Below are positions 29,437 through 53,269 of a stretch of 64,000 nt of DNA, one piece after another. Position numbers and translations under genes: made by a program. Source of the stretch: an uncultured Phycisphaerales bacterium (GTDB lineage Bacteria; Planctomycetota; Phycisphaerae; Tepidisphaerales; Tepidisphaeraceae); contig CAVWVQ010000003.1 of NCBI GenBank assembly GCA_963758525.1, positions 3,744,001-3,808,000 of the forward strand, given 5' to 3'. The stretch's first letter is position 1. Every line of letters starts with the position of its first letter. The notes beneath the pieces were generated by a model. It had not been told where the DNA came from and did not search any database. It saw nothing but the letters and a program-made list of their open reading frames with translations.

Positions 29437-32400
29437 CTACTTCGCGGCGGCAAACTCGCGCGAATGCATCATCGCGGCGGAAACGCTTCGATGCAGCAGA
29501 TCCGCTCCCAGCGAACCGTGCAGGCTGGCCAAATACTCGGCCGACTGGACCTCGGCCAGCGCTTCGCGGGCTCTGGCGAGCGTGCTGCGAACGTGCAGGC
29601 GCTCGGCTTCATGGGCGTAACCGGGGCGGAGCAGGAACGCCTCGAGCGCGTCGACGTGGCGCTGCCAGACGTTGGCGTCGATCCGTTGTTTGGCGGCAAG
29701 ACGCCGGGCATACCACTCGCTGGATAGCAGGTAGTCGCGGGTGAAAAGCTGGCGCACCTTTGGATGGTCCAACGGGAGATGTTCGAAGTGCCCGTCCCGC
29801 ATGATGTGCAGCAGCGCCGCCAGCGGGGGGCAGGCCCACGCGATGCTGCCGTCGTCGAAATAGGCGCGGGCGACGCGCTGCTGCGTGGCGAGAATGTTAT
29901 CCACGCCTTCGATGAACGTCGCCAGATCCTGGAGCTCGGGCCGGAGCATTTCGTCGGTGAAGACGACGTGCGGGTGATTGAATACCCGGCCGAAGTAGGT
30001 GTTCACAAATCGCCGCGTGATGCGGTAGCCGAGGCGGCTTGCGAGAACGGTTCGGCCGTCATGCTCGAAGTCGGCGCACTTTTCCAGATAGCCGTTGCGG
30101 ATCAGGAAAGCGGGCGATCTTTCCTGCACCGACATTCGGCACCAGATCTCCGGCACCAGCAGGCTCACATCATGATCAACGCGCACATGCGGCCCCACAT
30201 AGCCGGCGGCGGTGATGAAGACATCGGATTCACACAACACGTAGGAGACCAGCGCGTTGTTGAGATCGATGATGGGCGGAAGCGCGTTAAACGGGCCCTT
30301 GGTCAACGCCCCTTCCGAACCGGCGCCGGTGGTGGAGGGGCTCTTGCCGGTCATGGAGCAGATGATCTCCATGAACAGCTCGGGAAGGTCCATGTAGTGA
30401 ATCGGATTATGCACCGCCAGCGCGCGAATGCCGGCGGCAGGTTCCGGCGGATTGTTCCGCCGGCCCGGAAGCACCGCGCTGACGGGCGTGTGCGCGGGCT
30501 GATCGGGCGCGATGCGGCGATGAAGCCGCAGCGCGATGTCCGCCAGATAGGTTTCCCGCGGGTTGATCAGATCATTGCGTTTCTGCAGATAGCGCGGGTT
30601 CTTCGAGGGCTTACCATCCACAAGGCGCGGATATGCCGGTGAGAGGAAATACCCGCAGCCGGTGCCGGCGGCGCTTTCCCGGGCGACGGCGCGGATCAAT
30701 TGCCGCATCGGCTCGGTATATTCATCGAACCCGATCGAGTCCTCCATCAACTCGCGGGCCTTGCTGGCGGGGATCGGCTCGTAGTTTGAGAAGAAATGGC
30801 CCGACTCGGAAAAGTCCCTTTCCGTTCGCTTGTCGTACCCGCGATGGATCGCGTCGTCGGGGCGCTGAAACAGCAAGGTTTCGCAATTGGTGATGAACTT
30901 CACCGAGGCATTCAAATATTGCTTGTTAAGCCCTTCGAGCCGATTCGCTGACACCACGATCGAAGCGCTGATGTCGTCTTCCATTTGCAGCTTGACGGCG
31001 GGCTGAAAGTCCTTGCGCAGCCCGAAGGTTCGCCACGAGCCGTCATGGTCGTAGCCGACGCGAAGGTAATTGGTCACGAGCTTGCGATTGTCGCATTTCA
31101 GCTCGTTACCCGGTTTGCCGTTGATGATGTCGACGCTGAAATGCTCCTGCCAGTTGTCGTTCCACTCCGCTTTGTAGAAGCGTTTGACGACGAAGACAAG
31201 TTCCTTGATGTACTGCGGAATCGTCGCGAGCCACGCGTTGTATTCCGGGGTGTACTCCCGCGAATGGGGCGTCAGCAGTTGAATGACCGATCCCAGCGAA
31301 CGGGCGTTGCTGAGAATCGGCCGGCTCTTGTCCTTTCGCTTCTCAAGGTCCTTGAAACGATCCGCGTAGTCGCGCCGGATCAGCGCTGCCACGCGCTCAA
31401 AGTCGCTGTCAAAATCCGCGACGAAGACCGGGCCGGCGATGATCGCATCGGTGATCGGCTTGCTGATTTCCGATTTTCCGCCGCCGGAAACCGTGCACGG
31501 TTTGTGGCAAAACGTCGGCTCCGCCACGGTTCCGACCAGGCGCCAGGCTCTCCCGCCCGGCGGCTTCTCCATATGCACTTTGTAGCCGGAGGGCCGCACG
31601 TACGTCTTGCCGGGGAGCAGCCGCATCGACCTTTCGCAAGGCTTTCCCTCCGCGTCGGTCCAGGGCCAGCTCACCTTCTGGGCAAGCAGGTCGAAAGCCA
31701 CATTCTCCGAGACGTAGACGATGTCGCTGTACTTCTTGTCGGTCGCGTATCCGTCGAGATGCACGTCCATGCGCTGGGCGTAGGTCGAGATCATGTCCGC
31801 GTAGCTGTGATCCAGCCGGGGGACGTGCAGATGTCCGCTGAACTCCTCGCCCAGGTCATAGCTGGGATAGACCAGAGCGCCGCCGGCGTGTTCTTCTTCG
31901 CATGCGCCAAACAGATTCGCCGCGAAGCTGATCTGCGTCTTCACTTCCTTCTTGCAGTAGCCGTAATAGTTGTCCGCGATGACCGTGACGATGACGCCCG
32001 ATTCGTCGCGGGCCGTGATCTTGAACGCATTGCCGCCGTTATAAAGCTCGGCTTCGTTCTTCCAGCACATGCCGTCGCGGCGCTGACGCTCGGTTGCGTC
32101 ATCAAAATGCGGCAGACCCACCGACTTTTTCGTCAGCTTCGTCAGATGCGGCGCGAGAATGACACAACCCGTATGGCCCGTCCAATGCCGCACGTCCAGC
32201 GCCGCGTCGTTCTCCGGCAGATACGGATCGCCCGCGTTACCGAAGATGCTTTCCACGAAATCAAGATTGCTCACCAGTGCGCCGGGGGCGAAGAAGCGGA
32301 TCTCCATTGCCTTCTGGGAGGTGACGCCCGGCACCTTCGGACAGACGATCGGACGCAGCAGAAGCGACACGAAACAGGCCGCCTCCTGCGGCTGGCCCTG

Positions 32401-32973
32401 CGTGAACGGCAAGCGCATGTTTTCCGCCGGCGGCTTGAGCGCCGCGGCGAGCAGCCGGGCAAACGTCTCCTTCGGCACGGCTTCCTTGTCATCGGGAATC
32501 GGCAGCCCTCCCTCGGCCACATGGAAAATTCCCTTCGTCGTCCGGCGGTCGCTCTTGGGATTGTGCAAAACTCCCTGCTTCACGCGATACGAATGCACAA
32601 TCTCAGAAACGAATTCATCCCCCTTCGGCGGCAGCGACAGCGCCCGCGCTCTGCCCGCGCGGTCGAGCACAAACGTGATGCCCGGGAGCTTGATCGATCC
32701 GCCGGCGGGGCCTTCCGGCTCGATCCTGACACCGGCCAGGTAGCGATCCAAAAACGCCTGGATACGCTGATCGGCAGGGCAGAGATAGTTCGTGAGCAGA
32801 CGCATGGTCTCGCGAAAATGCGAGAGAAACGCGCCGGCCACATCGTGAAAATCAGCGTCGCCCTCAGTCCCGACCGTCGGGAGGCTCAGGGCCGCGAGTT
32901 TCAGATTGATATATTTGACAATAGTGCGCTGCTCAGCGGCCAAAGCCGCTGCGGGACCGTCTAAAGAACTCAT
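29437..32973 (-). CDS. PPi-dependent phosphoenolpyruvate carboxykinase (1178 aa)
   Basis: HNPKSDRRTTKG, NYYGYCKKE, EEEHAGGA, CTVSGGGKSEISK, TGKSPSTTGAGSEGALTK. Confidence 0.87.
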   Translation of the reverse strand: MSSLDGPAAALAAEQRTIVKYINLKLAALSLPTVGTEGDADFHDVAGAFLSHFRETMRLLTNYLCPADQRIQAFLDRYLAGVRIEPEGPAGGSIKLPGITFVLDRAGRARALSLPPKGDEFVSEIVHSYRVKQGVLHNPKSDRRTTKGIFHVAEGGLPIPDDKEAVPKETFARLLAAALKPPAENMRLPFTQGQPQEAACFVSLLLRPIVCPKVPGVTSQKAMEIRFFAPGALVSNLDFVESIFGNAGDPYLPENDAALDVRHWTGHTGCVILAPHLTKLTKKSVGLPHFDDATERQRRDGMCWKNEAELYNGGNAFKITARDESGVIVTVIADNYYGYCKKEVKTQISFAANLFGACEEEHAGGALVYPSYDLGEEFSGHLHVPRLDHSYADMISTYAQRMDVHLDGYATDKKYSDIVYVSENVAFDLLAQKVSWPWTDAEGKPCERSMRLLPGKTYVRPSGYKVHMEKPPGGRAWRLVGTVAEPTFCHKPCTVSGGGKSEISKPITDAIIAGPVFVADFDSDFERVAALIRRDYADRFKDLEKRKDKSRPILSNARSLGSVIQLLTPHSREYTPEYNAWLATIPQYIKELVFVVKRFYKAEWNDNWQEHFSVDIINGKPGNELKCDNRKLVTNYLRVGYDHDGSWRTFGLRKDFQPAVKLQMEDDISASIVVSANRLEGLNKQYLNASVKFITNCETLLFQRPDDAIHRGYDKRTERDFSESGHFFSNYEPIPASKARELMEDSIGFDEYTEPMRQLIRAVARESAAGTGCGYFLSPAYPRLVDGKPSKNPRYLQKRNDLINPRETYLADIALRLHRRIAPDQPAHTPVSAVLPGRRNNPPEPAAGIRALAVHNPIHYMDLPELFMEIICSMTGKSPSTTGAGSEGALTKGPFNALPPIIDLNNALVSYVLCESDVFITAAGYVGPHVRVDHDVSLLVPEIWCRMSVQERSPAFLIRNGYLEKCADFEHDGRTVLASRLGYRITRRFVNTYFGRVFNHPHVVFTDEMLRPELQDLATFIEGVDNILATQQRVARAYFDDGSIAWACPPLAALLHIMRDGHFEHLPLDHPKVRQLFTRDYLLSSEWYARRLAAKQRIDANVWQRHVDALEAFLLRPGYAHEAERLHVRSTLARAREALAEVQSAEYLASLHGSLGADLLHRSVSAAMMHSREFAAAK

Positions 32974-33281: not shown

Positions 33282-34427
33282 TCATCCCCGGATAATCTGC
33301 GCCATCGCATCCGCGAGCTTTTCCGGCGTGCAGGAAAGAATGTCCATCCCGACTTTTCGGCACTTGGAGGCGGTGGTCTTGTTGTATTCGGGACGAGCGG
33401 AGTAGCCGAGCGCGCCGAGGCCGATCATTCGAACGCCCGACTGGGCCATGTCGCGCACCTGGCTGACCAGATCGCGCTCCGAGCGCCCTTCGTAGAAATC
33501 GGTGATCAAAACGACGATCGTCCGGCCGGGCTGCGCGACCAGTTGATTCGCGTAATGGAGTGCTTTGGCGATATCCGTCCCGCCGCCGAGTTGGATCGAG
33601 AGCAGCACATCGACGGGCTGGCCGACCTTGTCGCTGAGATCGGCGATGTCGGTGTCGAAGAGGAACAGGCTCGTGCGCACCGACGGAAGCTCAGCGAAGA
33701 TGGACGCCATGACGGCAGAGAAAATCGCCGAGTCGAGCATCGAGCCGGATTGATCGACGGCGACGATGATGTGCCAGGGCCGGCTCCTGCGCTCGGCGGC
33801 ATGGAAGTAGAGGCGGTTGACCAGCAGCTTGGCGGACTCGGCATCATAGTTGTGCAGATTGCGGCGAATCGTCCGGCCCAGATCGAGGTTGCGATACACC
33901 CGCCGGGGCGAATGCTTGTCGCGCCGGATCGCGCCCGTGATGGCCGGCTCAATCTGCACTTTCAGCTTCTGCTTCAACTCCTGCACGACCTTGTCGATGA
34001 TCTTGCGCGCCAGGGAGCGCGTCTGCTCGTTGAGCAGATCGCGATGCGTCAGCAGTGTCTTGACCAATTCCTGGTTCGGCTCGATCCGCTCCAGCAATTC
34101 GGGCTTCTGCATCAGCTCGCGCAGGCCTTTGCGATTGACCAGCTCGCGCTCCATCACCTCTTTGGCTTCGCGGGGAAACAGCTCGCCAACCTCGTCCACC
34201 CAGCGCGGGACGTTCATCGCGTGGCCCGGGCCGGAGCCGCCGGTTCTGTCCCCGTGCTTCGGCTTCGCGCCGGCAGAGTCTTCGAAGAGGAAGCCGACGA
34301 GCGCTTCGATCCGCGCGGCTTGTTCGTCGTCGCCGGCGATCGAGACCCCGTGCTGGTCCGCGGCCTTCCCCAGGACCAGCCGCCAGCGGGTCAGCGTTTT
34401 GCGTTGTTGTTGAGTGAGATCTGCCAT
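33282..34427 (-). CDS. VWA/CoxE-like protein (YehP-like)
   Basis: RWRLVLG, MIDAS DQSGSM, LGGGTDI, ITDFYEG. Confidence 0.88.
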   Translation of the reverse strand: MADLTQQQRKTLTRWRLVLGKAADQHGVSIAGDDEQAARIEALVGFLFEDSAGAKPKHGDRTGGSGPGHAMNVPRWVDEVGELFPREAKEVMERELVNRKGLRELMQKPELLERIEPNQELVKTLLTHRDLLNEQTRSLARKIIDKVVQELKQKLKVQIEPAITGAIRRDKHSPRRVYRNLDLGRTIRRNLHNYDAESAKLLVNRLYFHAAERRSRPWHIIVAVDQSGSMLDSAIFSAVMASIFAELPSVRTSLFLFDTDIADLSDKVGQPVDVLLSIQLGGGTDIAKALHYANQLVAQPGRTIVVLITDFYEGRSERDLVSQVRDMAQSGVRMIGLGALGYSARPEYNKTTASKCRKVGMDILSCTPEKLADAMAQIIRG

Positions 34428-34439
34428 GGTGGGACCGAA

Positions 34440-36956
34440 TCAATTTTTGTCGCTGATCCATTTCTCCAGGATCGCCGCGACCTCGGTATCGAGTTGAGCC
34501 ATCAACCGGGCGGCGCCCACGCTGATCGTGAGGGTGCGGAGCGATTCACTTTCCTTCAGACCATACAGTTCCGCCACGTGCGACGCGACGCCGTCGCGCT
34601 GGCGCTCGTGCAGCGTCTCAAACGCCGCGCGGAGGCGCGGCACCATGTTGAGAAACGTTTCTCCGTCCGCGTTTTGCAGCAGTTCGTCGATCGCGGCAAC
34701 GAGCGCCGTCGCCCCCAGCAGGATCGCGGTCTTGGAGACGCGGAGCACGCCGTGCAGGAAATCGCCCGCGACCACCTGCTGATCGATGCCGCCCCGCGCG
34801 TACGCGCTCAGTTCCGCGGCGAGCGCCTCGGGCTTCATTCGCCGCATCTCTGTCAGAACGCCGAGAAACGCGCCGCGCAGGAATGGCATCGTCGAGTCCT
34901 TCGCGGCCCGATCGACGTGCGCTGCAAACAGGTCGGCATCCAGGTCCTGGCGTTGGACCACGGGCTCGGCCAGCGCCAACAGCCCGTGAATGACGTTGTC
35001 CCATTCCTCGGGCGGCACCGACGCGACTTGCGAGACCGCAAAGCACGCCCGATCGAAGCAGCGCGCGATCAGATCCGCGAGCCGTTGCTTTCCCATCCCG
35101 CGAAGCGCCGCATACCGCTCCAGCAGCATCAGCGACGTGAGCGCGTCAGTGAGCGAATGGAATCGATCATCATGGTCGATGGCATGCCCGGTGGCTTGCT
35201 CGGCCTGCGCGACAAGCGTCGGAAGATCCATGTCGATTGCCTGCACGAGCCGCCGGCATGCGGGGCCGGCTTCGAAGCTGTTTGCGCCGAGGCCTTCCCG
35301 CAGCAGCGTCATCGCCGCGACTTCCACGGTGTCGCCATGCAGGCTGCGCTCGATGAGCGACGCTCCGATCTTCGGACTCCACCGCAATTTCCAATGCTCC
35401 TTGAAGATCGACTGCCCGAAGGGGGACGTTTCGCGCTGCAGCGTGCCGATCTCGACGCCCAAAAAAATCAGGCGATGGAGGAATGCGGAGCGCGCCGCAT
35501 CGTTTGGCTGTCGCTTGTCGAGCGCATAAGTCTGCACTTTCTCGCGGGCGGCGACTTCCTCCAGATCGAGCCTGGCGAGTTGTTCGTAGAAGTCGTTGAT
35601 GATCGGAAGTCGGCCGATCCGGTCCGTCACCCGGCCGAGGCGCGTGCCGATGTTCACTTCGTCGATGGCATCCAGCAGGTTGCCCGCGTCGGTCTTCGGA
35701 TTTCCCTTGCAGCAGCAGGTGATCAGGGCATCGTGGATGTCATCCAGCACCGGGTGCTGCCGCCCGCGCAGGCGGGCGAGCATGAGCGCGTTCTGCGTCG
35801 CGGAGATGGCATCGGCTGAAGAGAAGAGCTCGCCGCGCCGGCGCGACTCCTTCAGGCAATCGATGACGTAATCGATCACCACCTGATCCTGCCCGATCCC
35901 TGCCGAATGGCTCTCGTAACACATCTCGTAAAAACGGGGCGCGCGGTTCCCGGCCCCATAGCCCGACAGCTCCGAAATCCGGAAGTATGAGTACGGCGCG
36001 ACGGTCACGCTCAGCGTTCCCTGCGGGATCGGCGGCGGAGGCTGGGGATCATTCCGATCGAGAAAAATGTGAAAGCCGCCGCAAACAACCATCGCCTCGG
36101 AAGGTTGAATGTTCAGATTGTCGAGCGTCTGGCGGATGGTTTTCCACATGAACCGCTCGCGGGCGAGAGTACCGTCGAACTGCAACGAGTCCGCCGGCGT
36201 GGTGGCGCGAACCGCCGCGCAGAACAGCGCAACATCGCGGCGCATGGTTTCGTAAGACTCGTCGGGCCGCGGGGTTTCAAAGAGTCTGTCCCATGTCTCG
36301 TTCCAGCTTCGATAGCCGGCGGTTTTCGCAAGCACCTGGTAGAACGTGCTGCGCGGGGCGATTTCATCGAGATCGCGCCGCTGCGCCGGCTGCGGTTGAT
36401 CGACGCCAGGGGAGGGCGGTCTTCCGATCGCATAATGGGGCAGGTCCATGAAAACGCTTTGGGCGCCGATCTCCCTGGCCGTGAGCATCGCGACGTATTC
36501 GGGCGAGTAGCTGACCAGCGGATACCAGACCGAATAGCGGGGGACCGGGATCGATGGACCCGCAACTGGTGCGCTTGCGGCGGTGTCGTCGCGGAAGCTG
36601 GAATAAATTGCCACCGGCGGGCGAGTCTTGGAATCGATGAGAAACTCGATCATCTCCTGCGCTTCGTGCGGCCCTTCGATGAACACGATCCGCGGCTTGC
36701 GCTGGCGGATCGCCTGGGCAATGTGCCGGGCGATGGCGGGGGAGTGATGCCGGACCGGAAACCAATAGAGCGGCTCGTTGAGAATCGTGTCCACGCTCGC
36801 GACCAGCGCGTCGACATCGAGTATCGCAGCGCGGGCGGCGTCAAGAACCTCGGAGGCAACTTCCGGGTTTGCGGGTGGCGCACCCATTTCCTCTCCCGGT
36901 ATGCCGCGGGAGGGCTGGGGTGGGGGCGTTTTCTGCTGTTGAAAAAGCTTGCTCAT
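34440..36956 (-). CDS. DUF5682 / YehM-like protein (start uncertain, 5' end overlaps a REP)
   Basis: PVRHHSP, IEGP, SPEYVA, RERFM, VCGGFH, GYGAG. Confidence 0.82.
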   Translation of the reverse strand: MSKLFQQQKTPPPQPSRGIPGEEMGAPPANPEVASEVLDAARAAILDVDALVASVDTILNEPLYWFPVRHHSPAIARHIAQAIRQRKPRIVFIEGPHEAQEMIEFLIDSKTRPPVAIYSSFRDDTAASAPVAGPSIPVPRYSVWYPLVSYSPEYVAMLTAREIGAQSVFMDLPHYAIGRPPSPGVDQPQPAQRRDLDEIAPRSTFYQVLAKTAGYRSWNETWDRLFETPRPDESYETMRRDVALFCAAVRATTPADSLQFDGTLARERFMWKTIRQTLDNLNIQPSEAMVVCGGFHIFLDRNDPQPPPPIPQGTLSVTVAPYSYFRISELSGYGAGNRAPRFYEMCYESHSAGIGQDQVVIDYVIDCLKESRRRGELFSSADAISATQNALMLARLRGRQHPVLDDIHDALITCCCKGNPKTDAGNLLDAIDEVNIGTRLGRVTDRIGRLPIINDFYEQLARLDLEEVAAREKVQTYALDKRQPNDAARSAFLHRLIFLGVEIGTLQRETSPFGQSIFKEHWKLRWSPKIGASLIERSLHGDTVEVAAMTLLREGLGANSFEAGPACRRLVQAIDMDLPTLVAQAEQATGHAIDHDDRFHSLTDALTSLMLLERYAALRGMGKQRLADLIARCFDRACFAVSQVASVPPEEWDNVIHGLLALAEPVVQRQDLDADLFAAHVDRAAKDSTMPFLRGAFLGVLTEMRRMKPEALAAELSAYARGGIDQQVVAGDFLHGVLRVSKTAILLGATALVAAIDELLQNADGETFLNMVPRLRAAFETLHERQRDGVASHVAELYGLKESESLRTLTISVGAARLMAQLDTEVAAILEKWISDKN

Positions 36957-37015
36957 TTCATAAGAGGACCCTCACTCCACCCTCTCCCGGTACTCCGGGA
37001 GAGGGTGGAATGATT

Positions 37016-38182
37016 TCACTTCAGGGACTTTTGTGCCTCGTCGTGGAATGACTGCCAGTGTTTATCCGACATCCCGCGTTTCCTGGCGACGATCGCAACA
37101 TATTCCTTGAGCGCGGCCAGATCCTGCGGGTCTTCCTTCACGATCGATCCGATCAGATTTCGCGCGATCGATCCTCCCGAGACTTTCCCGTCCCCGAAGA
37201 AACGGCTGTGGAGTGCGGCATCGACGGCGGTGCCGATCGCTTCCGCGGTGGAAAGAGTGGTGCCGGGGGATTTGACGCTGATGCCCTCCGCGGTTTTGCC
37301 GTCGCGCAGCTCGCGGAACGCGGTGGCAAGAAGATCGAGGATCGCCGGCTCGATTGTTGTGGGAATGTCATAACGCGAAAGAAGGTCCGCCGTCCGCTGA
37401 CGCACGATCTCGATTTCCGTCTTCTTGTCGGCGACGATCGGAATGTGGACGTAGTTAAACCGGCGTTTGAGGGCGGCTGAAAGATCATTAACGCCCTGAT
37501 CGCGGGAATTGGCAGTGGCGATGATATTGAAGCCCGGCCTGGCGAAGATGGTATTCGCATCCGGCAGTTCCGGAATTGCGATGTTCTTGTCCGACATGAT
37601 TGAGACAAGGGCGTCCTGCACGTCGGGCACGCAGCGCGTGATTTCCTCAAAGCGAAGCAGCCCGCCGCACCGCATGGCGACCATCGTCGGCGAGGGTATC
37701 AGATTGTTGGGCGTGGGACCTTCGGCGATGACGCGCGCGATATTCCAGGAATACTTGATGTGCTCCTCAGTGGTGCCTGCCGTACCCTGAATAACCAGCG
37801 TGGAGTTGCCGGCTATCGCGGCGGCGAGATGTTCGCTGAGCCAGCTTTTGCCGGTGCCGGGGTCGCCCACCAGCAGGAGCGAGCGCTCGGAGGCAAGCGT
37901 GACGATCGCCCGCTCGACAATGGCGGTATCACCATAGAATTTGCGCGTGATATCGACTTTCTTCTTCTTGCCGTCGATCGTCGCTTCCAGCGTCTTGCCG
38001 CCGAGGATGTAGGCCAAAACGGAACGTGGCGCAAGTTTCCAGGATGACGGAGGCTTGTCCCCCTCGTTTTGACGCAGCGCCTCGAGCTCATCGGCATAAG
38101 TGACTTCCGCCGGCAAGCGCAGCACATCGCTCTCCGCGGCGTGATGTTCCTTTTCCAAAGTCGGCTCCGTTTTCTTCGCCAT
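37016..38182 (-). CDS. MoxR-family AAA+ ATPase (YehL-like)
   Basis: GDPGTGKSWLSEHL, FEEITRC, ATANSRDQGVNDLSAALKRRFN. Confidence 0.9.
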   Translation of the reverse strand: MAKKTEPTLEKEHHAAESDVLRLPAEVTYADELEALRQNEGDKPPSSWKLAPRSVLAYILGGKTLEATIDGKKKKVDITRKFYGDTAIVERAIVTLASERSLLLVGDPGTGKSWLSEHLAAAIAGNSTLVIQGTAGTTEEHIKYSWNIARVIAEGPTPNNLIPSPTMVAMRCGGLLRFEEITRCVPDVQDALVSIMSDKNIAIPELPDANTIFARPGFNIIATANSRDQGVNDLSAALKRRFNYVHIPIVADKKTEIEIVRQRTADLLSRYDIPTTIEPAILDLLATAFRELRDGKTAEGISVKSPGTTLSTAEAIGTAVDAALHSRFFGDGKVSGGSIARNLIGSIVKEDPQDLAALKEYVAIVARKRGMSDKHWQSFHDEAQKSLK

Positions 38183-38251
38183 ATATCACTCCCATTCCTT
38201 ACCCTTCGTGCCTCCGTGCCTCCGTGCCTTCGTGCTTTCGTGCCTTCCCGG

Positions 38252-39361
38252 CTAAGTAAACTTCATCGCCTTTACCAGCTCCGCCTGACTGATTTTGTCG
38301 GCTGAGACGGTCAGATACTCCGGCCCGTCTTTGCCAAGCGCCGTCAGCGGCTGCAATAGCAGCTTGCAGGATTCGTAGTGTACGACGCCGTAGATCGGCG
38401 GCCTCTTCTTTTGTGCCGCCAGCTTTCCCATCACGGCATGCAACGGCGTGCCCGACGGACCGCGATCGAGCCGCGCCTCGAATTGCAAGGTTTGCGTGCT
38501 GAGTGGCAGGAGGTCGTAGCCTTCCTCTGAAGATGTTCGCTCGCCCGCCTGCCATTGGTCGACGAAGACTTCCTCCTGCAATTCGATCTCCAGATCCAGC
38601 GGCGTCGGGCGATGCTGCTCCAGCCGCGCCGACGCCGCCCGTGGATCCCAGTGCCACAGCGATTGCCAGTCCGTGAACGCGCTTGCCGTCTTCATCTCGC
38701 TGGCATCACCGAGGATCAGGCGAGTGACGCCGGGGGGCTGACGATGAATCGAACAGCGGCTGATTTCCACCGCTTTCTTCTCGAGCAGAAGCGATGGCTT
38801 GAATTTCTGCTTCTGCGGCAAATGCAAAAACGCCTCGGCGGGTAATTCGAGATCCTTTCGCATCGGAAAGACACAAGACCAGATGATCGCCTCGCCGGCT
38901 TCCACGGGCGCCGACGCTTCGATCGCGCGGAGACGGAAATCAAAGCTCGCAAACGCCCCCGGCACCACGCGCTTGGCAACGCCAAGCGTAACAACCTTCA
39001 GGCTCTGCACCGGCTGCGTCGGCGGAGTCGACATGAGAGCATCGAACGCGGCATTGTCGTTTGAATCGATCGCGCGGCGCATGCTCGTCGCCAGCAGCCA
39101 TGCTCGGCCGAGAAGAAACGCGAGGCGCCGCGAAGAGAATTGGGCCGATCCGGCGGTAAACCGCGAAATCTCCTCGTTGGCGATGCGAAGCGTCGAGCCC
39201 AGCCGGAGCAGACGCATGCGCGACGCCTCCTTGAAGCTCACGTCGATACGCTCGACCGTGGATTTGGAAGCCGCCGTGAGCCCGGCCAGCAGCAACTCCT
39301 CGACCGTGCCGCACAGTTCATCGAGAAGGGAGATGAGTTGTTTCTGTTCGGCTTGCTGCAT
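38252..39361 (-). CDS. Hypothetical protein (369 aa) in the Ku/ligase/MoxR operon
   Basis: Long co-oriented ORF, normal codon usage; helical N-terminus. Confidence 0.75.
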   Translation of the reverse strand: MQQAEQKQLISLLDELCGTVEELLLAGLTAASKSTVERIDVSFKEASRMRLLRLGSTLRIANEEISRFTAGSAQFSSRRLAFLLGRAWLLATSMRRAIDSNDNAAFDALMSTPPTQPVQSLKVVTLGVAKRVVPGAFASFDFRLRAIEASAPVEAGEAIIWSCVFPMRKDLELPAEAFLHLPQKQKFKPSLLLEKKAVEISRCSIHRQPPGVTRLILGDASEMKTASAFTDWQSLWHWDPRAASARLEQHRPTPLDLEIELQEEVFVDQWQAGERTSSEEGYDLLPLSTQTLQFEARLDRGPSGTPLHAVMGKLAAQKKRPPIYGVVHYESCKLLLQPLTALGKDGPEYLTVSADKISQAELVKAMKFT

Positions 39362-39453
39362 GTGTCCGCGATCCGTCAGAGTGTGAGTCTGGGGCGGGAT
39401 TCATCCCGCCGCATTCTCTGCTTCCCAAGACAATTGGCGGGATAAATCCCGCC

Positions 39454-39814
39454 CTACTCATCTTCAGTTGATTCGGGACTTTCTTCCCGATCGAGCAGTG
39501 CCACGGTCGTCTTGAGATGGGTGCCAACGACTCTCAGCGTGAGAAGTCGTTCCAGAAGGCGCACGGAAATCTGTGCTTCCAGCAGTTTGCGCGCGGACGC
39601 CCGTTCGTCCTTCTCGATTTGTGAATGCAGGGCCGACAGAATCGACGCCACATGTCCCGCGCCGGCTTGTTCCAGATATTCGGTAAATGACTGCAATTGC
39701 GACAGTTCATCCGGCCCGCAGGCGCAGGCCGCGAACGACAAGTGTTTCCAGCAGCGATCGCAGTCGTTCGATGCCGACGCGGAGTTCATCGAATTCGGAT
39801 GCACCAGTCACCAT
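39454..39814 (-). CDS. Small helical hypothetical protein; frameshift near 39722
   Basis: ATG 39814 gives MVTGASEFDELRVGIERLRSLLETLVVRGLR, which joins ACGPDELSQLQ... if a CG is restored. Confidence 0.65.
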
Positions 39815-39815
39815 G

Positions 39816-40709
39816 CTAATCGATGGAGCGGGAGTCGCCGCCGGCCCCAACCCCGCCAGTTGCCGGAACGGATTGGATGATCACGTATTGTTTTCGGAAC
39901 TCCACTCCGGCGTGCTCCCATGACTCGACGTATTTGCGCAGGGCGGATTTGCCCTCCTCAAATTCGGCGCCGTTGATTCGGCAATCCGCCTGGGCCGCGC
40001 CATCCTGGTTGCGCATGGCGAAAAGCCGAATGGCGCAAAAATGATCTGATTCCAGTAGCGATTTGAAAGCCTCGATTGATCGGGTCAGCAGACAACAGGG
40101 GCAAAATTGATGTTTGTCCCCGCCGCCGGCAGTTGGCTGGTCGGATGCATTGGGGTGTTGTTGATAGTGTGCCACGGGTCCCAGCACCACTCGACGGTGC
40201 CGCGCGGGCGTCGCGTCCTTCGGTGGAAATGACATCGAGAGAAGCGTCAACTGCTGAGGCTTCTCCCGGAGCGCTTCGACAAAAACAATATAATCAACCT
40301 GCGCCCACTGATCGAACCCCTTGGCGATCGAATCTTCCGCGCTGTCGCCCGTCGAATGTTGAAATTCAAATATCGGCTGAGGAATCAGCGTCGGATGGCT
40401 GATGTGAATCGTCGTGGTGGTCCTGGCTCCGCCAGCGTCCAGCGGCTGAAATCCTTCAACTTTTGGCCGGATGACGAAGCTGCGATCCTCGTCTTCAATG
40501 CGATCCTGGTGGCAAGTCACACGATACCCGCGCTGCCGAAGTACGCGGGCCGCGACCTCGAAGAGATTGAATTGCTCGTTCCAGGTCTCTGTTCCTCGGG
40601 CGTATGCGATCTTGACGTCTCCGGGAGATTTGGTGGTCGCAGCCGGAGCTGCAACCTGCTGTTGCGGTCCAGGTATCGGCCGGGCAGTTTTTTTGAACCA
40701 TCCAAACAT
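39816..40709 (-). CDS. Hypothetical protein, DUF6348-like
   Basis: MFGWFKK start; EFQHSTG, ADCRING, EFRKQYVI. Confidence 0.65.
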   Translation of the reverse strand: MFGWFKKTARPIPGPQQQVAAPAATTKSPGDVKIAYARGTETWNEQFNLFEVAARVLRQRGYRVTCHQDRIEDEDRSFVIRPKVEGFQPLDAGGARTTTTIHISHPTLIPQPIFEFQHSTGDSAEDSIAKGFDQWAQVDYIVFVEALREKPQQLTLLSMSFPPKDATPARHRRVVLGPVAHYQQHPNASDQPTAGGGDKHQFCPCCLLTRSIEAFKSLLESDHFCAIRLFAMRNQDGAAQADCRINGAEFEEGKSALRKYVESWEHAGVEFRKQYVIIQSVPATGGVGAGGDSRSID

Positions 40710-40744
40710 ACAGATCCCGGGCGCGGCGACCGCGTTTGTGACCC

Positions 40745-42856
40745 CTAGACCGCGTAATAATCTTCCGGCACGGTTTCGGTCGGCCGCCAATCCACTTCGC
40801 CGGCCTCGGCTCCCTTGTAGCGAATGAAGATCTCGCCCATCGTCTCCTTGTTCAACTCCGGCTTGGCGTCGTGCGTCCTGGCGATCCATCTGTCGATGGT
40901 CGAGGGATCGAGTTCCCCCGCCTTCACCAGGCCGATGATGAGCACCAGCAGATGTTTGCAGATCGAGCCGCGCAGACCGCCGCAGATGTTGAGGTTCTGG
41001 GTGCAGCAGGCGTATCCGCCGCCCGACTCGATCCGACAGGCGTAAACCAGATCAGCGTCCGTCTGGCTCTTGACCACGCCATTGAGATGCGTTTCGGTGA
41101 CGTCGTTGAAGAGTTGGAATCGCTCGGCCTTGAGCATTTTCGTTGCTTTATCGATTTTCGCCTTGTCTGCGCGAAGCTCGAGCGCTTTGAGGAATGTTGC
41201 GATGTCGGTGACTTGGCCGATCTCTTTGGCAATCTGCTTTGCGATGATTCTCTTGGCGGTCGCCTGCTGTTGTTCCGCGAGCTTTTTGACCTTCTCGCGT
41301 CGCTCGCGATCGATGGCTTTCTGCTCCTGCAGTTGCTCTCGGCGCGCTTTCGCTGCCGCCGCAAGTTCCTTCTCACCCGGAAGGGGCTGCGCGAAAGCCT
41401 CGGAAATTCCTTTCAGGACGAGCTCGCGAAGTTCCTTTCCGGCCTTGGGCGATTTGCTGGTTTCGATGTCCAGTGTTTCGAAACGAACCTGGCGATTCGT
41501 CAGCATATTGGCCAGAAGCAGCATCGAAGCGGAAAAGGTCGTGCTCGTCTGCCGCGCGAGTCGCCCGGCCAGGAGCGTTTGGGGAATCCGCAGCGCCCAG
41601 CCGTACTTCAATCGTGCGGTGTCGAGTCCGACTTCCTCCCCTTCGTCCGCTGCGTCCGTTCGAACGCGAAACGTCAGGCATATCCGCCGTGCCTGTTGTG
41701 CCAATGCGTCCAATTCCTTGAGGGCGGGACCAACCGCTCCCGCGGGAGCTGCGGCAGGATTGTAGTTTGTTGCGTTCTTCAGGTTGACGCCGTGAAGCTT
41801 CGCGCCTCTGAGGTTGCACTCCGTCAAGTCCGCGGCGTCGAAGCGGGAGTTGGTCAGGTCCGTGTCCGCGAAGTTGGCGCGCACGCAACTTGCGCCGCTA
41901 AAGTTGGAATCCGGCATGCCGCAGCCGACGAACGTGACTCTGTCCAGATTGGCATTGCGGAAGCTTGCCGCGGTGAACGTGCATAAGTTGAACACGCTGT
42001 CGGAGAGGTTGGCGCCATCGAAGTCTGGGGATTTCAGCGACAGGTTCAGAAACTTCGCCAGCCGCACGGAGGTTCCCGCAAAGACACAGCCGGTTGTGTG
42101 CAGTTCCTGAGCGGCCGTCAGGCCGTACATGGATCGCGTCAACGAGGCCTTATGGAGCATCGCGCCAGTGAAGTCTGCAGACGTCAGGCTTCCCTGAAAT
42201 CGGGCGCCTTCCAGGTCTGTCTTGTGAAATCGGCTGCCCTGCACGTCCACAAACGCCGCGCCCACCGCGTCGGCTCTGCTGAAATCGCAATTCCTGGCAG
42301 AAGCGAAGCTGGCGTTGCCCAGCTTAGAGCGGGCAAAGCTGCATTGCTCAAAGCCGATGGAGCCGAAGTCGAATCCCGGCAGTTCCAAATTGTCGAAGTT
42401 CTCGCCGGCAAACGTGAAAAGCGGCGCAAAGGTTTGATGGGGATAACGCAACTGTCGAGCGTCAGCCCCAACGGCTTTCTTGAACAGATCGGCGTTCGCT
42501 TTTCCGCCGCGAATGAGCAAAAGCGCCTCCTCTTCGGTTGGCACAACCATTTTCTCAAATGCATCGGCGTCGATTGTCTGTATCCCCGCGCCGTTCGCGT
42601 TTAGCGATAGCGCGAGCTTCTGGATGGTTTTCCCTCCGCTTAAATCCCTCAAAACCAGAAAATCCGCCGACTCGTCGAGTTCCTCAACAACAACCCCTTG
42701 CTGCGCGTCGACCATCCCTGTCAGTCGTTCCTTCACTCCATGATCGAACTTCCCGTTGAAGAACACCTTCTTCCCAAGCAGACGCGTCAGCACCGGCGGG
42801 AGGGCTTGCTCCTTCGGTGCGGGATTTGGATTCGCTGCCTTCTTCATTTTCCCCAC
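40745..42856 (-). CDS. BRCT + pentapeptide-repeat + SWIM zinc-finger multidomain protein
   Basis: GKKVFFNGKF...DFLV (BRCT-like); A(D/N)LxxAxF repeats; YACCTQNLNICGGLRGSICKHL. Confidence 0.78.
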   Translation of the reverse strand: MGKMKKAANPNPAPKEQALPPVLTRLLGKKVFFNGKFDHGVKERLTGMVDAQQGVVVEELDESADFLVLRDLSGGKTIQKLALSLNANGAGIQTIDADAFEKMVVPTEEEALLLIRGGKANADLFKKAVGADARQLRYPHQTFAPLFTFAGENFDNLELPGFDFGSIGFEQCSFARSKLGNASFASARNCDFSRADAVGAAFVDVQGSRFHKTDLEGARFQGSLTSADFTGAMLHKASLTRSMYGLTAAQELHTTGCVFAGTSVRLAKFLNLSLKSPDFDGANLSDSVFNLCTFTAASFRNANLDRVTFVGCGMPDSNFSGASCVRANFADTDLTNSRFDAADLTECNLRGAKLHGVNLKNATNYNPAAAPAGAVGPALKELDALAQQARRICLTFRVRTDAADEGEEVGLDTARLKYGWALRIPQTLLAGRLARQTSTTFSASMLLLANMLTNRQVRFETLDIETSKSPKAGKELRELVLKGISEAFAQPLPGEKELAAAAKARREQLQEQKAIDRERREKVKKLAEQQQATAKRIIAKQIAKEIGQVTDIATFLKALELRADKAKIDKATKMLKAERFQLFNDVTETHLNGVVKSQTDADLVYACRIESGGGYACCTQNLNICGGLRGSICKHLLVLIIGLVKAGELDPSTIDRWIARTHDAKPELNKETMGEIFIRYKGAEAGEVDWRPTETVPEDYYAV

Positions 42857-42859
42857 ATT

Positions 42860-44332
42860 TCACCCCTTGGCCGGCGCCCAGCCTTTGACGATGTTCTCAG
42901 CCTTCATCCCTATGAGCAAAGCCTCAATCTGCTCGCGCGAATTGCTCACGCGAATATCCCGGTCGATCGGTGTCGCGCGATTGGGACTGAAATCGGTGAA
43001 ATACGCGACATATGCCGGGAAATTGCCGCCTTCGGATTCCTTGTTGGTTTTCCAGAGCAGCAGCTTGCGGACCATCAGGTTGCCCTTGATGGTTTTCGTG
43101 AAGACCTCGCGCTGGAGCATCTGGCTTTTGGGAAGCGAAAGCTGCCGGGCGTCGCGATCGATCATCGCGACTTCGGTGATCTCGTGCACCTGATGCAGGC
43201 GAAGGTCCTGATGGCGAATCGTCTTGTCCTCGCGACGACGCACGAAGTTGGGCGAGATCGGGCTGGCCAGCGGAAGCCGCCGGATGGACTGATACATGTT
43301 GCGCGGCATGTCGTAGCCGAGCACCATCCGGTCGATGCTTCCGCCGCGCGTGGTCTGGCTGATCAGATCGAGGCAGGAGATTTCGATCACCCATTCGGGA
43401 CGGACCATCTGGTAAGCGACCGACTCGTTCACCTCGGCGTAGTCACTGTGGGCGGCCATGTCTTTGAGATCGCTGAGCCAGGCGCGCCGCTCGTCTTCGC
43501 TGATCCCGCCGCCGACGCGGCCCAGGATGTGGAAGCTGCTGTCCTGCCGCATCAGTCCGACGAGCATGTCGTGAATCATTCCCACGCGATCGTCCACGCC
43601 TTCGGTAAATCCCAGCACGGCCACGTCGAGCGAGATGCGCGGCTTGATCTTGAACAACCCGCCGCTGTCGGAGCGAACGACCAGACCCTCGCCGCCTTCC
43701 TCATCAACCCACTTGGCGAAACGTTGCATCACGTCGTCGACCGTTTTGGCCCTCGCGGTTTCCACGGGGTGGATCTTCTTGCCCGACTTGAAAGTTGCTT
43801 CGATTTTTTTGTGGACTTCGGCATATGCCGTCGGAGCGGATTTGTCGTCGATTTCATGAATGTCGAAGACGGCAAACTGCAGCAGGTCAAGCTCGGCTTG
43901 CGATTCGGGTTGGCGGGCGACGCGGGAAACATCGTGCACGCGCGGGCGGCGATCCGTCCGGGCAACGTATAACTCGCCGGCCAGGATCATCTTTTTGTGC
44001 TTTGTTTTGCCGAGCAGGGCGACCGCTTCCTGCATGAACGGCAATCCCGTCCGCACGACCCCGCCGGGATTGACCGAGCAGCAGTGGTCGCCGTCGATGA
44101 CCAGCAGCGTGAATTCCCCATCGACCTTTCGGCTGACAAAATAGTCGCAGGCGGGCAACTTCTCCTTCGCCGACGCCCGATCCAGCGCCATCATCTGTGC
44201 CGCCAGCTTGCGGCGGCATTCCTGGGCCTTGAGCGGGATAAACGGATCGGCCATGCATTGCGCTTTGCCGACGCCGTAGGTGCCAAAGAGCATCTGCAGG
44301 CGCGAGGTGTCGAGGAGCGTGTTGGTCGCCAT
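42860..44332 (-). CDS. Divergent ATP-dependent DNA ligase with C-terminal WGR-like domain
   Basis: SRKVDGE, AGELY, FAVFDI, EGLVVR, FKIKP, PEWVIEI, PNFVRRREDK; tail ends ...KAENIVKGW. Confidence 0.78.
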   Translation of the reverse strand: MATNTLLDTSRLQMLFGTYGVGKAQCMADPFIPLKAQECRRKLAAQMMALDRASAKEKLPACDYFVSRKVDGEFTLLVIDGDHCCSVNPGGVVRTGLPFMQEAVALLGKTKHKKMILAGELYVARTDRRPRVHDVSRVARQPESQAELDLLQFAVFDIHEIDDKSAPTAYAEVHKKIEATFKSGKKIHPVETARAKTVDDVMQRFAKWVDEEGGEGLVVRSDSGGLFKIKPRISLDVAVLGFTEGVDDRVGMIHDMLVGLMRQDSSFHILGRVGGGISEDERRAWLSDLKDMAAHSDYAEVNESVAYQMVRPEWVIEISCLDLISQTTRGGSIDRMVLGYDMPRNMYQSIRRLPLASPISPNFVRRREDKTIRHQDLRLHQVHEITEVAMIDRDARQLSLPKSQMLQREVFTKTIKGNLMVRKLLLWKTNKESEGGNFPAYVAYFTDFSPNRATPIDRDIRVSNSREQIEALLIGMKAENIVKGWAPAKG

Positions 44333-44335
44333 TGG

Positions 44336-45055
44336 TTACTCGCTGGTTTGCGGCCGCGCCTCGGCGGCCTTGAGTTCCATGTTGGAGAGGTGGAGGATCA
44401 GGCAATAGTTTTCCGCCTGCGTGCGTCCCTCCAGGAATCCGCGAAACTGCTGCCCGCCGCGAGTGAGGATCAGCGGATGATTCCCCTTGGGCCCGGCGCC
44501 GATAGCCATGAGGCTGTCGGTTTGCTCCAGTTCCCTGGCCATTGCGAAGAGGAAGTCGTAGGTGAGTCCGTTGACGTGAACGATCTGCCGTTTTCCCGCG
44601 AAGACAAACTTGTTGTAAACGTCCTTCTTCTTCATCAGTTTGCCGGACCACTTCAGCGGCGTTTCCCCGGCGCAGTTGGCCTGGGCGACCTTCCGCGGAC
44701 GCCGTTCGCGCTCGGTGCCGTCCGGATTCCGAATCACCTCAAATTGCTTCACCTTGTGAACGATCTTCCCGTCGGCGTCGATGAAGACCCGGCTGGTCTC
44801 CCTCAGCGTTGATCCAAAAGTTTCGATGTCGACATCCGGATCGCCGTCGATCAGAAGCTGTGCGATTTTGTCTCGCCCGCCGGCTTTCGCTTCGAGTGCC
44901 GCCAGATCATGCGCCGCATGCGCTTTCATCAGCCGGCACGACTGAATCTGCCGCCCCTGCTCGTCGAGCCAGCGCACCTTCGCCGGCTTCAAAACGCTCT
45001 GCGCACCCACCACCGCATCGCGTCCTTTGCTGTTGGCTATATTAATCGTTCCCAT
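44336..45055 (-). CDS. Hypothetical protein, Ku-like (by-eye similarity)
   Basis: KVRWLDEQGRQIQSCR; TYDFLFAMARELEQTDSLMAIG...YCLILHLSNMELK follows the Ku core pattern. Confidence 0.55.
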   Translation of the reverse strand: MGTINIANSKGRDAVVGAQSVLKPAKVRWLDEQGRQIQSCRLMKAHAAHDLAALEAKAGGRDKIAQLLIDGDPDVDIETFGSTLRETSRVFIDADGKIVHKVKQFEVIRNPDGTERERRPRKVAQANCAGETPLKWSGKLMKKKDVYNKFVFAGKRQIVHVNGLTYDFLFAMARELEQTDSLMAIGAGPKGNHPLILTRGGQQFRGFLEGRTQAENYCLILHLSNMELKAAEARPQTSE

Positions 45056-45103
45056 GTCCGCTCGCTCTTGCCTTCGTGCCTCCGTGCCTCCGTGCCTTCC
45101 CCC

Positions 45104-45718
45104 CTACATCATCCCGAAATCCATCGCCTCTTCATCCTCCGCTGTCGTGTCTTCGTCGCCGCTGATGGCGGCGCTTTGGTCGAAGCCAACGAACTCGAGT
45201 TTCGTGGGCGATCCCACCGCGAGAAACGGCGTTCCATCCGCGGCGAGCAGGAGAAAGCCGGTGTCGGCCTCCAGGCCGCCGCGGAACGAATAGGGGAACT
45301 GATAAATCGTCCCTTTTTTCAGTTCTGCCAGAAGCCCGCCGAAGTCTGCTTCGCAACTGATCTGATAGACCGACCGTATGTCGTGACTGAGATACTCTTC
45401 GATCGTCGCGGTCTTTTCCACCACGACTGGCGCGGCGTAAGAGGAACTGACCGGCACGATGCGGCTTCCCTGATTGTCAGTGGGAATCAGCGTCTTCTTT
45501 TCAACCCAATGCCCTTCGGGCGAGAGGGTGACCAGCGCCGTCCCGCCCGAAAAGATGACGCTCTTGCCGTCGTCGGCCAACGTCGCCAAGGTGCATTTGC
45601 GGCCCTTCTCGTCGAGCGTTTCGATCTCGACAGAGCCGTACAAGTCGGATCGCTCGACTCGGTTCAACGCAAACGGCAACTCAACTCCCCCGAAAGCCAA
45701 TATGAGCGGCTTAGCCAT
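45104..45718 (-). CDS. Hypothetical protein, Ku-like (by-eye similarity), acidic tail
   Basis: LILAFGGVELPFALNRV vs Ku GsIsFGLVnIPvkL; VEKTATIEEYLSHDIRSVYQI vs Ku iei.dFv...eIdpiyf...Yyl. Confidence 0.55.
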   Translation of the reverse strand: MAKPLILAFGGVELPFALNRVERSDLYGSVEIETLDEKGRKCTLATLADDGKSVIFSGGTALVTLSPEGHWVEKKTLIPTDNQGSRIVPVSSSYAAPVVVEKTATIEEYLSHDIRSVYQISCEADFGGLLAELKKGTIYQFPYSFRGGLEADTGFLLLAADGTPFLAVGSPTKLEFVGFDQSAAISGDEDTTAEDEEAMDFGMM

Positions 45719-52249: not shown

Positions 52250-53269
52250 CTAAAGGTCAGTCCTCACTCGCAGATAACTCGGAAACCGCGGGACGCCGCC
52301 TTCGGATAGTTCCTGGTAGCGAAAAGCAATCGTCGAGCCGATGGCAGGGGGGCTTTCCCGTTCCTTGTCGCTGAAGCCCGTTCCCACGGCGAACTCGGTG
52401 CCGTCCGGCAAGCGCACCAGCAGCGCGCCCAAACGTCCTTTATGCCTGCCCGCCCCGGCCTGATGCCCGGTCACGAGCGCATCGGCATCCTTGAAGCTCT
52501 TCACCTTCAGCAGCGTGGATGAACGACCGGCTTGATATGTCGAGGCGGGCTGACGCAGCATGAGACCTTCGCCTCCCAGGGATTCAACACGCGTCAATTC
52601 CTGCCGCAGGCTCGCGATGTCGCGGCACAACTGATGCGGATGCAACCCGGCAAACTTGCAGCTTCGGTCCGCAAACATCCGTTTCAGAAATTCCATGCGC
52701 GCTTCAAAGCCGCCAGCGACGGCGGGGGCGTCAAACACGAGATAGCGAACTTCCTTCCAGAGGTCGCTTTTGTCCTGCCGACGAACGATGCTGACGGTGC
52801 GCTGGAATTTTTTGCGATCGATCCAGAGTTCGCCATCAAGAGGGGTCTTCCCAAGGCCGGCCACGAACCAGTCCGGCGCGTGGTAGACGTTTCCCTGGCG
52901 GGAAAGAAACTGCTTGCCGTCCCAGTAGGCGCGCACTCCATCGAGCTTCTCGCTCATCCACCAGCCGGAAAGGTCGGCGGCGTTGTCCCAGCTTTCTGCC
53001 AGCAGAAGCGGGGGGCCGGCGCCCGCTTCACTGCCATCGGCGGAAGCTTTCACCGGTCGTTGCGGCAGCACGCCGCCAATGCGCGTGGTTTCGGCTGCAT
53101 CGCCACGAAGTTTGCGGAGGTGCTTGCAGGTTCTGCGTTCGATCGCAATCGATTGATTGCGCCACGCCGGACACGAGCATGAGAATACGCCGCCGGTGTT
53201 TTTGAGGACGTATGGCTTGGCGCCCGATCCTTGCATTTCGAATGTCTCGCCATCGTTGAGGTCGGCCAT
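52250..53269 (-). CDS. ATP-dependent DNA ligase (minimal type) with N-terminal SWIM zinc finger
   Basis: SCSCPAW...CKHL; SEKLDGVRA, DGELW, EGLMLR, LLKVK, PRFP. Confidence 0.88.
   Translation of the reverse strand: MADLNDGETFEMQGSGAKPYVLKNTGGVFSCSCPAWRNQSIAIERRTCKHLRKLRGDAAETTRIGGVLPQRPVKASADGSEAGAGPPLLLAESWDNAADLSGWWMSEKLDGVRAYWDGKQFLSRQGNVYHAPDWFVAGLGKTPLDGELWIDRKKFQRTVSIVRRQDKSDLWKEVRYLVFDAPAVAGGFEARMEFLKRMFADRSCKFAGLHPHQLCRDIASLRQELTRVESLGGEGLMLRQPASTYQAGRSSTLLKVKSFKDADALVTGHQAGAGRHKGRLGALLVRLPDGTEFAVGTGFSDKERESPPAIGSTIAFRYQELSEGGVPRFPSYLRVRTDL

Follow-up and report, generated by a model that had tools for sequence, protein, structure and literature searches.

Three adjacent genes, encoding two proteins with a predicted Ku fold (here KuA and KuB) and an ATP-dependent DNA ligase, form a conserved unit in a 64,000-nt stretch of contig CAVWVQ010000003.1 from an uncultured Phycisphaerales bacterium (assembly GCA_963758525.1; G000:C3:3744001-3808000 in our own-genome code, hereafter the window). 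The KuA-KuB-ligase triplet is conserved across several phyla and, as we infer from the predicted fold and pairing of its two Ku-like proteins, probably represents an end-joining pathway. KuA (45104..45718, minus strand, 204 aa), KuB (44336..45055, minus strand, 239 aa) and the ligase (42860..44332, minus strand, 490 aa) are the first of ten minus-strand genes spanning 33282..45718. An original prediction, made from the letters of the window, had taken all ten genes for one candidate end-joining or defence system, in which a MoxR/VWA module assembles or remodels a Ku-ligase unit. All ten open reading frames were re-located in the order it gave; the neighbourhood survey, however, recovered the triplet only and not the ten genes as one conserved system.

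The KuB survey covered one genome per species and found 274 relatives, the best 80 of which give the genome-locus counts reported below (loci and genomes carry L and G numbers). KuA lies beside KuB in 69 of these 80 loci, and the ligase beside KuB in 75. Five of the 11 loci without KuA start at a contig edge, and of five other KuA-less loci that were tested, four belong to genomes holding KuA elsewhere. Likewise, the ligase was located elsewhere in the genome for all four ligase-less loci tested. A metagenome survey, picked by KuA, comprised 80 of 361 loci found, most of them short, with wide flanks in 13. All three genes are present in 13/13 of these wide metagenome loci and in 13/13 loci from phylum and genus genomes, the phylum sample being an even sample of 400 Planctomycetota genomes (401 with the own genome, G000). 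KuB was found in Planctomycetota, Verrucomicrobiota, Acidobacteriota, Cyanobacteriota, Spirochaetota, Chloroflexota, Myxococcota, Actinomycetota and two Pseudomonadota bins, and its nearest named relatives, with 77-78% identity, come from Tepidisphaeraceae and Humisphaera. The spread is patchy, with KuB in 12/401 genomes of the phylum sample (one carrier, G125, showing a partial match only) and in 1/60 relatives.

Both KuA and KuB are predicted to adopt the Ku beta-barrel with its arm/bridge insertion. A total of 580 homologues of KuA and 2870 of KuB were found. AlphaFold2 models built from input alignments of 120 and 82 rows reached a pLDDT of 94.5 for KuB and 79 for KuA, whose predicted Ku core covers residues 1-175. 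Among the matches listed by Foldseek against the PDB, both models hit only Ku-containing entries (38/38 for KuB), with best E values of 1.3e-5 for KuB and 6.8e-5 for KuA. With the VIA aligner, the top match of KuB was Mycobacterium tuberculosis Ku (Z 12.7, rmsd 4.4, 163 residues aligned), and KuA matched Bacillus subtilis and M. tuberculosis Ku best (Z 10.7, rmsd 5.9, 160 and 172 residues aligned). The next neighbours were SPOC domains (Z 8-11) and INTS13/14, which are close in Z with about 100-110 residues aligned. Since the alignments with bacterial Ku cover 160-172 residues and those with SPOC-only structures about 100-110, the likeness includes the ring-forming arm. A search of viral structures gave two significant matches only, and both are phage Ku proteins; the ESM Atlas returned nothing usable for KuA and unnamed clusters only for KuB. 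The earlier suggestion that the first two proteins are Ku-like is supported, as a predicted fold for both, by Foldseek, the VIA aligner and viral structures. Conserved basic positions number 14 in KuB and seven in KuA, which is compatible with binding of double-stranded DNA ends and goes no further.

The two proteins are further predicted to form a heterodimer with arms intertwined as in Ku rings. For the modelled KuA-KuB complex the score was 0.79, and the best of three controls, a set without homodimers, came out at 0.00; the mark was attained by 116/157 solved complexes and 2/215 mismatched pairs. Contact agreement between runs was at least 76% and partner pLDDT at least 74, and the predicted interface contains both arm regions of each protein (KuA 21-49 and 59-87; KuB 21-44 and 84-113). 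The partners are asymmetric in charge. KuB is net basic, with 37 Lys and Arg vs 29 Asp and Glu, and KuA has 16 Lys and Arg vs 32 Asp and Glu. The acidic tail of KuA ends in D-F-x-hydrophobic-hydrophobic in 144 of 163 complete KuA sequences, and a looser pattern is present in 157 of them. This acidic tail with its hydrophobic end may resemble the tail of Ku80. Lys/Ala/Pro-rich tails were found on several KuB and ligase relatives, and tails of this type occur on canonical Ku too (PMC9638933, in part).

The ligase possesses nucleotidyltransferase and OB domains (DNA_ligase_A_M, PF01068; DNA_ligase_A_C, PF04679), and in 28/28 aligned sequences motifs I, III, IIIa, IV, V and VI do not vary, with K69-x-D-G, E120, F156-D157, E215-G216, K228/K230 and R367-x-D-K as the invariant residues. 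Among solved structures, DNA ligases of archaea (E 3e-18) and eukaryotes come closest to it. No LigD polymerase (POL) or phosphoesterase (PE) domain was detected with Pfam or NCBIfam, as the original prediction had said; the protein is LIG only, and its TIGR02779 score of 52.6 bits is far under the NCBIfam LigD cut-off of 227.75. The C-terminal domain of 90 aa is conserved, carries many invariant basic residues and is limited to this family among the sequences compared. A WGR match in Pfam is absent from this domain; HHalign against WGR gave 12.5% over 36 columns (the last helix, with its KG[WY] end), where the W-G-R motif is replaced, and the likeness stayed weak.

Several results weigh against reading the triplet as an end-joining unit with a heterodimeric Ku. 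Neither KuA nor KuB matched anything in Pfam, NCBIfam, PADLOC or the PDB sequences, and the Ku profile PF02735 matched none of the 120 KuB rows listed. HHalign of KuA and KuB against 32 canonical Ku proteins gave probabilities below 1%, and KuA against KuB reached 0.4%. Whole-model TM-scores to Ku from Foldseek stay at 0.44-0.49, and the Ku/SPOC barrel is also found in proteins outside nonhomologous end joining (NHEJ), such as INTS13/14 and SPOC-domain proteins. The complex score may pass through likeness to solved Ku dimers, and the controls did not cover a preference for the heterodimer over homodimers; one of the five KuA-less genomes tested has KuB without detectable KuA. Motif I of the ligase reads KxDGEF, without the arginine that ATP-dependent DNA ligases usually have at that place. 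The own genome, an exception among the carriers, already holds a LigD and two canonical ku genes, and a PF02735 search of it returned two other genes only, neither of them KuA or KuB. Canonical Ku was found in only 4/40 carriers tested, and in the phylum sample in 0/11 KuB carriers vs 56/389 non-carriers; this pattern speaks for replacement of canonical Ku by the triplet, but the lower frequency is not significant (P 0.38).

In the mechanism we propose, a ring formed by KuA and KuB would slide onto the DNA end left by a break and bring in the ligase for sealing. Basic KuB would make most of the contacts to the DNA backbone, and the acidic KuA tail may serve as a docking peptide, most plausibly for the basic C-terminal domain of the ligase. 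Dirty ends would be processed in trans, in many relatives presumably by an adjacent fusion of an AEP primase-polymerase to a HAD phosphatase-like domain, and in the own genome perhaps by the separate host LigD or by a second small ligase. Sealing by the ligase would leave the closed Ku ring trapped on the sealed DNA.

The AEP-HAD fusion adjoins the triplet in 15/80 genome loci and 6/80 metagenome loci (for example L077:12305-13531, L042, L015:2821-3915 and L156:15464-16549). Its primase match is AEP-TOTE-like and weak, with motifs DxD and SxxGGxH, and its HAD domain has the motif DxDG and a match to the 'Swiss Army Knife RNA repair' family. In principle, the fusion could supply fill-in and 3'-phosphate removal as the POL and PE domains of LigD do, and it is a candidate stand-alone end-processing enzyme. 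Another recurrent neighbour, a MerR-TPR(-BRCT) gene, lies next to the triplet in 5/80 genome loci and 4/80 metagenome loci, and next to canonical ku in the own genome (L002) and in 3/29 other ku loci. Along with the basic tails, the AEP-HAD fusion and this gene are company of the NHEJ kind and count in favour of end joining. The MerR-HTH and TPR protein, in many cases with BRCT, was located at L002:317-1177 (G000:C3 near 2730300), L010, L015, L050, L051, L062, L154, L156, L158 and L165, and is possibly a shared NHEJ regulator or adaptor. The second small ATP-dependent ligase of the window (52250..53269, minus strand), overlooked in the original prediction, possesses an N-terminal Cys/His zinc-finger-like segment and lies 6.5 kb upstream, split from KuA by a DUF1501/cytochrome-c-type/glycosidase block; its homologues directly adjoin the triplet in L089, L099, L100, L120 and L125. 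A divergent triplet lineage was also found whose ligase (~1040 aa) carries a fused classical AAA ATPase domain, at five loci (L090-L094) in three genomes (three copies in G162, and G289 and G400). A serine recombinase and a common small gene adjoin L091-L094 and L179, a related triplet on an IMG/VR contig, which suggests an integrative element as the triplet carrier.

E. coli YehL, YehM and YehP have homologues in genes 8 to 10, which lie in a row, as had been proposed. They encode a MoxR AAA+ ATPase of the YehL subfamily (37016..38182, minus strand; PF07728, AAA_5, Walker A and B intact; 41% identity to YehL over 360 aa), a DUF5682 protein (34440..36956, minus strand; PF18934, E 2e-118; 28% identity to YehM over 816 columns) and a VWA protein with a MIDAS motif (33282..34427, minus strand; PF05762, VWA_CoxE; 37% identity to YehP). 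MoxR proteins are divided into seven subfamilies, YehL being one, with roles like those of chaperones and targets that are unclear (PMC3893208, in part). The E. coli yehLMPQ locus, composed of a YehL-subfamily MoxR, YehM, the VWA protein YehP and the SWIM protein YehQ with WGR proteins upstream, has the same MoxR-DUF5682-VWA order at 28-41% identity, whereas the zinc-finger gene of the window lies upstream and encodes BRCT as well as pentapeptide repeats, and no counterpart of genes 6 and 7 was detected there. Two WGR-domain genes were observed elsewhere in the own genome (G000:C3:4824490-4824711 and 2752122-2752328; L083 and L084), one of them about 20 kb from canonical ku.

The association of this module with the triplet is not obligate. 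A MoxR module is adjacent in 4/80 genome loci, or 2/42 of those with wide flanks, and DUF5682 was found in 14/40 carriers, adjacent in one, and not found in 26/40. The ligase half and the MoxR half, which the original prediction had expected to be kept together in other genomes, are thus largely not co-conserved. The window order without gene 5 recurs in G402 (L085), L120 and L125, the last two of which have identical KuB, and a window-type order begins in L003 and L099. Close relatives of the same clade lack the module (L102, L105, L116, L124 and L129), and a window-type module without KuB is present in G054 and, decayed, in G405. In the phylum sample, DUF5682 occurs in 5/11 KuB genomes vs 41/389 others (Fisher P 0.004, with kin not independent), and it lies within 10 kb of the triplet in 3/5 co-carriers, where chance gives about 0.3% per genome. 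The MoxR-adjacent loci fall at five separate places on the KuB tree (a quick tree of 113 rows, with rows below 6 kb or partial KuB left out) and include three module types in four orientations, namely same strand downstream, same strand upstream, convergent and divergent. The link between MoxR module and triplet is therefore repeated and above chance, but optional. What stands of the proposed tie between the AAA/VWA half and the Ku-ligase half is adjacency above chance, not dependence.

The repeated recruitment of AAA+ ATPases to the triplet fits p97-like unloading, which is our preferred, if weakly supported, role for the module. Eukaryotic p97 removes trapped Ku (PMC5577460, in part), and by analogy the YehL-type MoxR-VWA module might be an optional helper that pulls the closed Ku ring off sealed DNA, a possibility that we hold tentatively and consider doubtful. 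The many carriers in which DUF5682 was not found speak against this AAA step, and so does E. coli, which has yehLMPQ and no Ku. About as likely as the unloader role is a neighbour role in a stress regulon, where the triplet is an end-joining unit and the MoxR-VWA module, mechanistically unrelated, is clustered with it through the same stress response; we give this a sizeable chance, though short of even. The three module types and four orientations argue against a single inherited operon, and yeh modules are common alone, being present in 47/401 phylum genomes. However, adjacency in three of five co-carriers is far above the chance level given above, gene 4 carries a BRCT domain, a DNA-repair adaptor, and a different AAA ATPase was independently fused to the ligase. 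Tight gene spacing, an order shared, gene 5 apart, with G402, L120 and L125, and the location here of the only DUF5682 gene of the genome would fit a single obligate machine of ten genes, with MoxR/VWA needed to assemble the Ku-ligase complex. The low adjacency, the module-free relatives of the same clade and the modules without KuB make such a machine highly improbable. The wider view of a second, ancient bacterial end-joining class of eukaryote-like design, in which a Ku heterodimer of two unlike subunits, bearing a docking tail and having its own ligase, would be served by an AAA+ segregase (YehL-type MoxR and its VWA adaptor, or an AAA domain fused to the ligase) that takes the trapped ring off repaired DNA, appears unlikely.

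Two further explanations concern the triplet itself. It might act in conflict with mobile DNA, either capping or mis-joining phage or plasmid ends, or circularising and protecting a mobile carrier element. The patchy spread, the serine recombinase beside the AAA-fused variant and the IMG/VR triplet, and a partner primase matching a Pfam family named for a conflict system are in accord with this. On the other hand, PADLOC 2.0 gave no match for genes 1-7, 9 and 10 and a weak AAA match (E 1e-4 or worse) for gene 8, and no recurrent defence gene was present among the clustered neighbours of the 80 loci. The GC content equals that of the flanks, a single locus was found in viral contigs, and canonical NHEJ is itself sporadic (PMC7719229, in part). 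We regard a role in mobile-DNA conflict as rather improbable, and no evidence for the defence system envisaged by the original prediction, such as a PADLOC 2.0 match to a described system, was obtained. Still less probable, indeed very unlikely, is that the Ku-fold pair binds RNA or protein in the style of INTS13/14 or SPOC, with the ligase and HAD phosphatase healing and sealing RNA. SPOC domains and INTS13/14 are the next structural neighbours, the ligase has an RNA_ligase match in Pfam (E 6e-7) and an atypical motif I, and the HAD domain matches an RNA repair family; but an OB domain and motif VI are present in the ligase, whose closest matches are DNA ligases, the arms align to DNA-binding Ku and not to SPOC, and a neighbour gene is common to the triplet and canonical ku.

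With end joining as the favoured function, the triplet can be compared with described NHEJ systems. Conventional bacterial NHEJ consists of Ku and a three-domain LigD (PMC7719229, in part), a definition that the triplet ligase falls outside. The non-conventional arrangement, a Ku-type gene beside an ATP-dependent ligase, was found in 75/80 loci when Ku is defined by structure. The triplet resembles the systems of B. subtilis, M. tuberculosis and Pseudomonas aeruginosa, which are built of a Ku homodimer and LigD, in having Ku-fold genes beside an ATP-dependent DNA ligase, basic tails in some relatives, and polymerase and phosphatase functions nearby in many. Unlike them, it has two different Ku-fold genes without detectable similarity to PF02735, and its ligase, of a separate clade, has the 90-aa C-terminal domain but lacks both POL and PE, AEP-HAD presumably taking the place of the LigD domains. 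In B. subtilis, Ku acts as a homodimer together with LigD (PMC12784961, in part), and genetic evidence for a bacterial Ku heterodimer comes from Sinorhizobium meliloti Ku3-Ku4 (PMC6379672, in part). That pair, with LigD4, is similar in its two ku genes in one operon, kept together and proposed to heterodimerize (PMC6379672, in part), but it belongs to the ordinary Ku family and works with LigD, whereas KuA and KuB lie outside the family profile and have their own ligase. Paired canonical ku genes on the same contig within about 2 kb, resembling S. meliloti ku3-ku4, were observed in Planctomycetota genomes at G054:C252, G079:C461, G172:C68, G214:C223, G276:C2 and G399:C94. The tandem canonical pairs of Planctomycetota (G054, G079, G172, G214 and G276) are distinct from KuA/KuB. 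With eukaryotic Ku70/Ku80 and p97 the triplet shares a predicted asymmetric heterodimer, with a VWA protein and an AAA+ ATPase nearby in the window; in contrast, the VWA is a separate YehP-type gene, no SAP domain is present, and MoxR is not p97. This likeness is one of predicted architecture.

Bacterial Ku heterodimers are thus not new in themselves, and the new element is a Ku pair that escapes the family profile and goes with a ligase clade of its own. According to its predicted models, the triplet is likely a sequence-invisible variant of bacterial NHEJ with a heterodimeric Ku. Because NHEJ surveys count Ku by sequence profile (PMC7719229, in part), KuA and KuB are invisible to them, and 36/40 of the carriers tested would count as Ku-negative. 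Literature searches, with comparative-genomics supplements and most subscription papers outside their scope, returned no description of a KuA-KuB-ligase triplet. The accessible portions of PMC11936186, PMC7719229, PMC7470946, PMC11377751 and PMC7159879 deal with profile-based surveys of Ku, another WGR-ligase group and human Ku paralogues, and not with this triplet, and that of PMC7159879 nowhere mentions YehL, SWIM or WGR. If the assignment holds, the range of NHEJ would grow to include lineages of Planctomycetota, Acidobacteriota, Verrucomicrobiota, Cyanobacteriota and others. As a minimal set of three genes, a heterodimeric Ku from bacteria would offer a model for why eukaryotes use two subunits, and the triplet brings a ligase clade not studied so far, along with a compact candidate end-joining toolkit for genome editing. 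Two questions become testable, namely how Ku is removed from sealed DNA in bacteria and which targets YehL-type MoxR ATPases have. The segregase reading, if true, would provide the first client for the long-orphan yeh module and a bacterial counterpart of p97-driven Ku removal.

Gene 4 (40745..42856, minus strand, 703 aa) encodes a protein with BRCT, pentapeptide repeats and a Cys/His (SWIM-like) C-terminal domain, and belongs to the MoxR module of the window lineage. It directly follows the ligase in L003, L085, L099, L120 and L125. Of the three domains originally assigned, the pentapeptide repeats were recovered and BRCT was confirmed through homologues, being weak in the window copy (E 0.06) and clear in others (E 3e-7 and 2e-8), whereas SWIM had no Pfam match (PF04434). 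The Cys/His motif C-C-x6-C-x7-C-x-H near residues 615-635 is kept in 4/4 homologues examined, and BLAST gave no similarity between gene 4 and YehQ. Qnr, PipB, HalA and similar families were rejected as identities, with NCBIfam scores far under cut-off that reflect pentapeptide-repeat likeness only. A tandem duplication of gene 4 was observed in G402 (L085:6436-10601) and L120 (7718-11851), where the window has DUF6348. That gene, gene 5 (39816..40709, minus strand, 297 aa, Pfam match to DUF6348), was found in none of the 173 loci tallied (0/80 genome loci) and is missing from the otherwise complete L085, L120 and L125; it is a local insertion outside the conserved unit and not, as had been supposed, a member of the system. 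Gene 6 (39454..39814, minus strand, ~120 aa) encodes a small helical protein, and gene 7 (38252..39361, minus strand, 369 aa) a conserved hypothetical protein of the MoxR module, with 802 homologues, that occupies the same place in L085, L120 and L125. No similarity of genes 6 and 7 to one another or to YehQ was found, and neither has a detectable E. coli counterpart. Pfam searches gave no match for genes 1, 2 and 7.

Gene 5 most plausibly starts at 40709 and gene 6 at 39814. After start correction the intergenic gaps are 48, 3, 3, 35, 1, 92, 69, 59 and 12 nt, so that the spacing of 1-92 nt stated earlier was borne out. The reading frame of gene 6 is broken in the assembly by a frameshift near 39721. 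A single short-read contig (depth 2, otherwise one differing letter in 151) holds two extra bases behind this position, the two DNA runs reaching the locus in scattered short pieces only. Homologues of gene 6 are unbroken in L120 and L125, and the same-genus genome G402 has the identical break. An assembly error common to both genomes and a true lesion of the genus are both possible, and an assembly error is likely. The GC content of the ten-gene block (0.59-0.64) is that of its flanks, and a horizontal island was rejected for lack of a shift between them. Promoter and terminator scans of the block stayed at chance level, with no sigma-70 promoter and no clear terminator, and co-transcription of the ten genes is inferred from spacing alone. 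Directly downstream, a 1178-aa protein (29437-32973, minus strand) matched nothing in Pfam or NCBIfam; we presume that it resembles pyrophosphate-dependent PEP carboxykinase. Divergent from the second small ligase, a 399-aa protein (53456-54655, plus strand) contains about six W...S/G-Y-x-x-A-x-x-A-A-G repeats and, from this repeat pattern, is likely a DNA-binding repeat protein.

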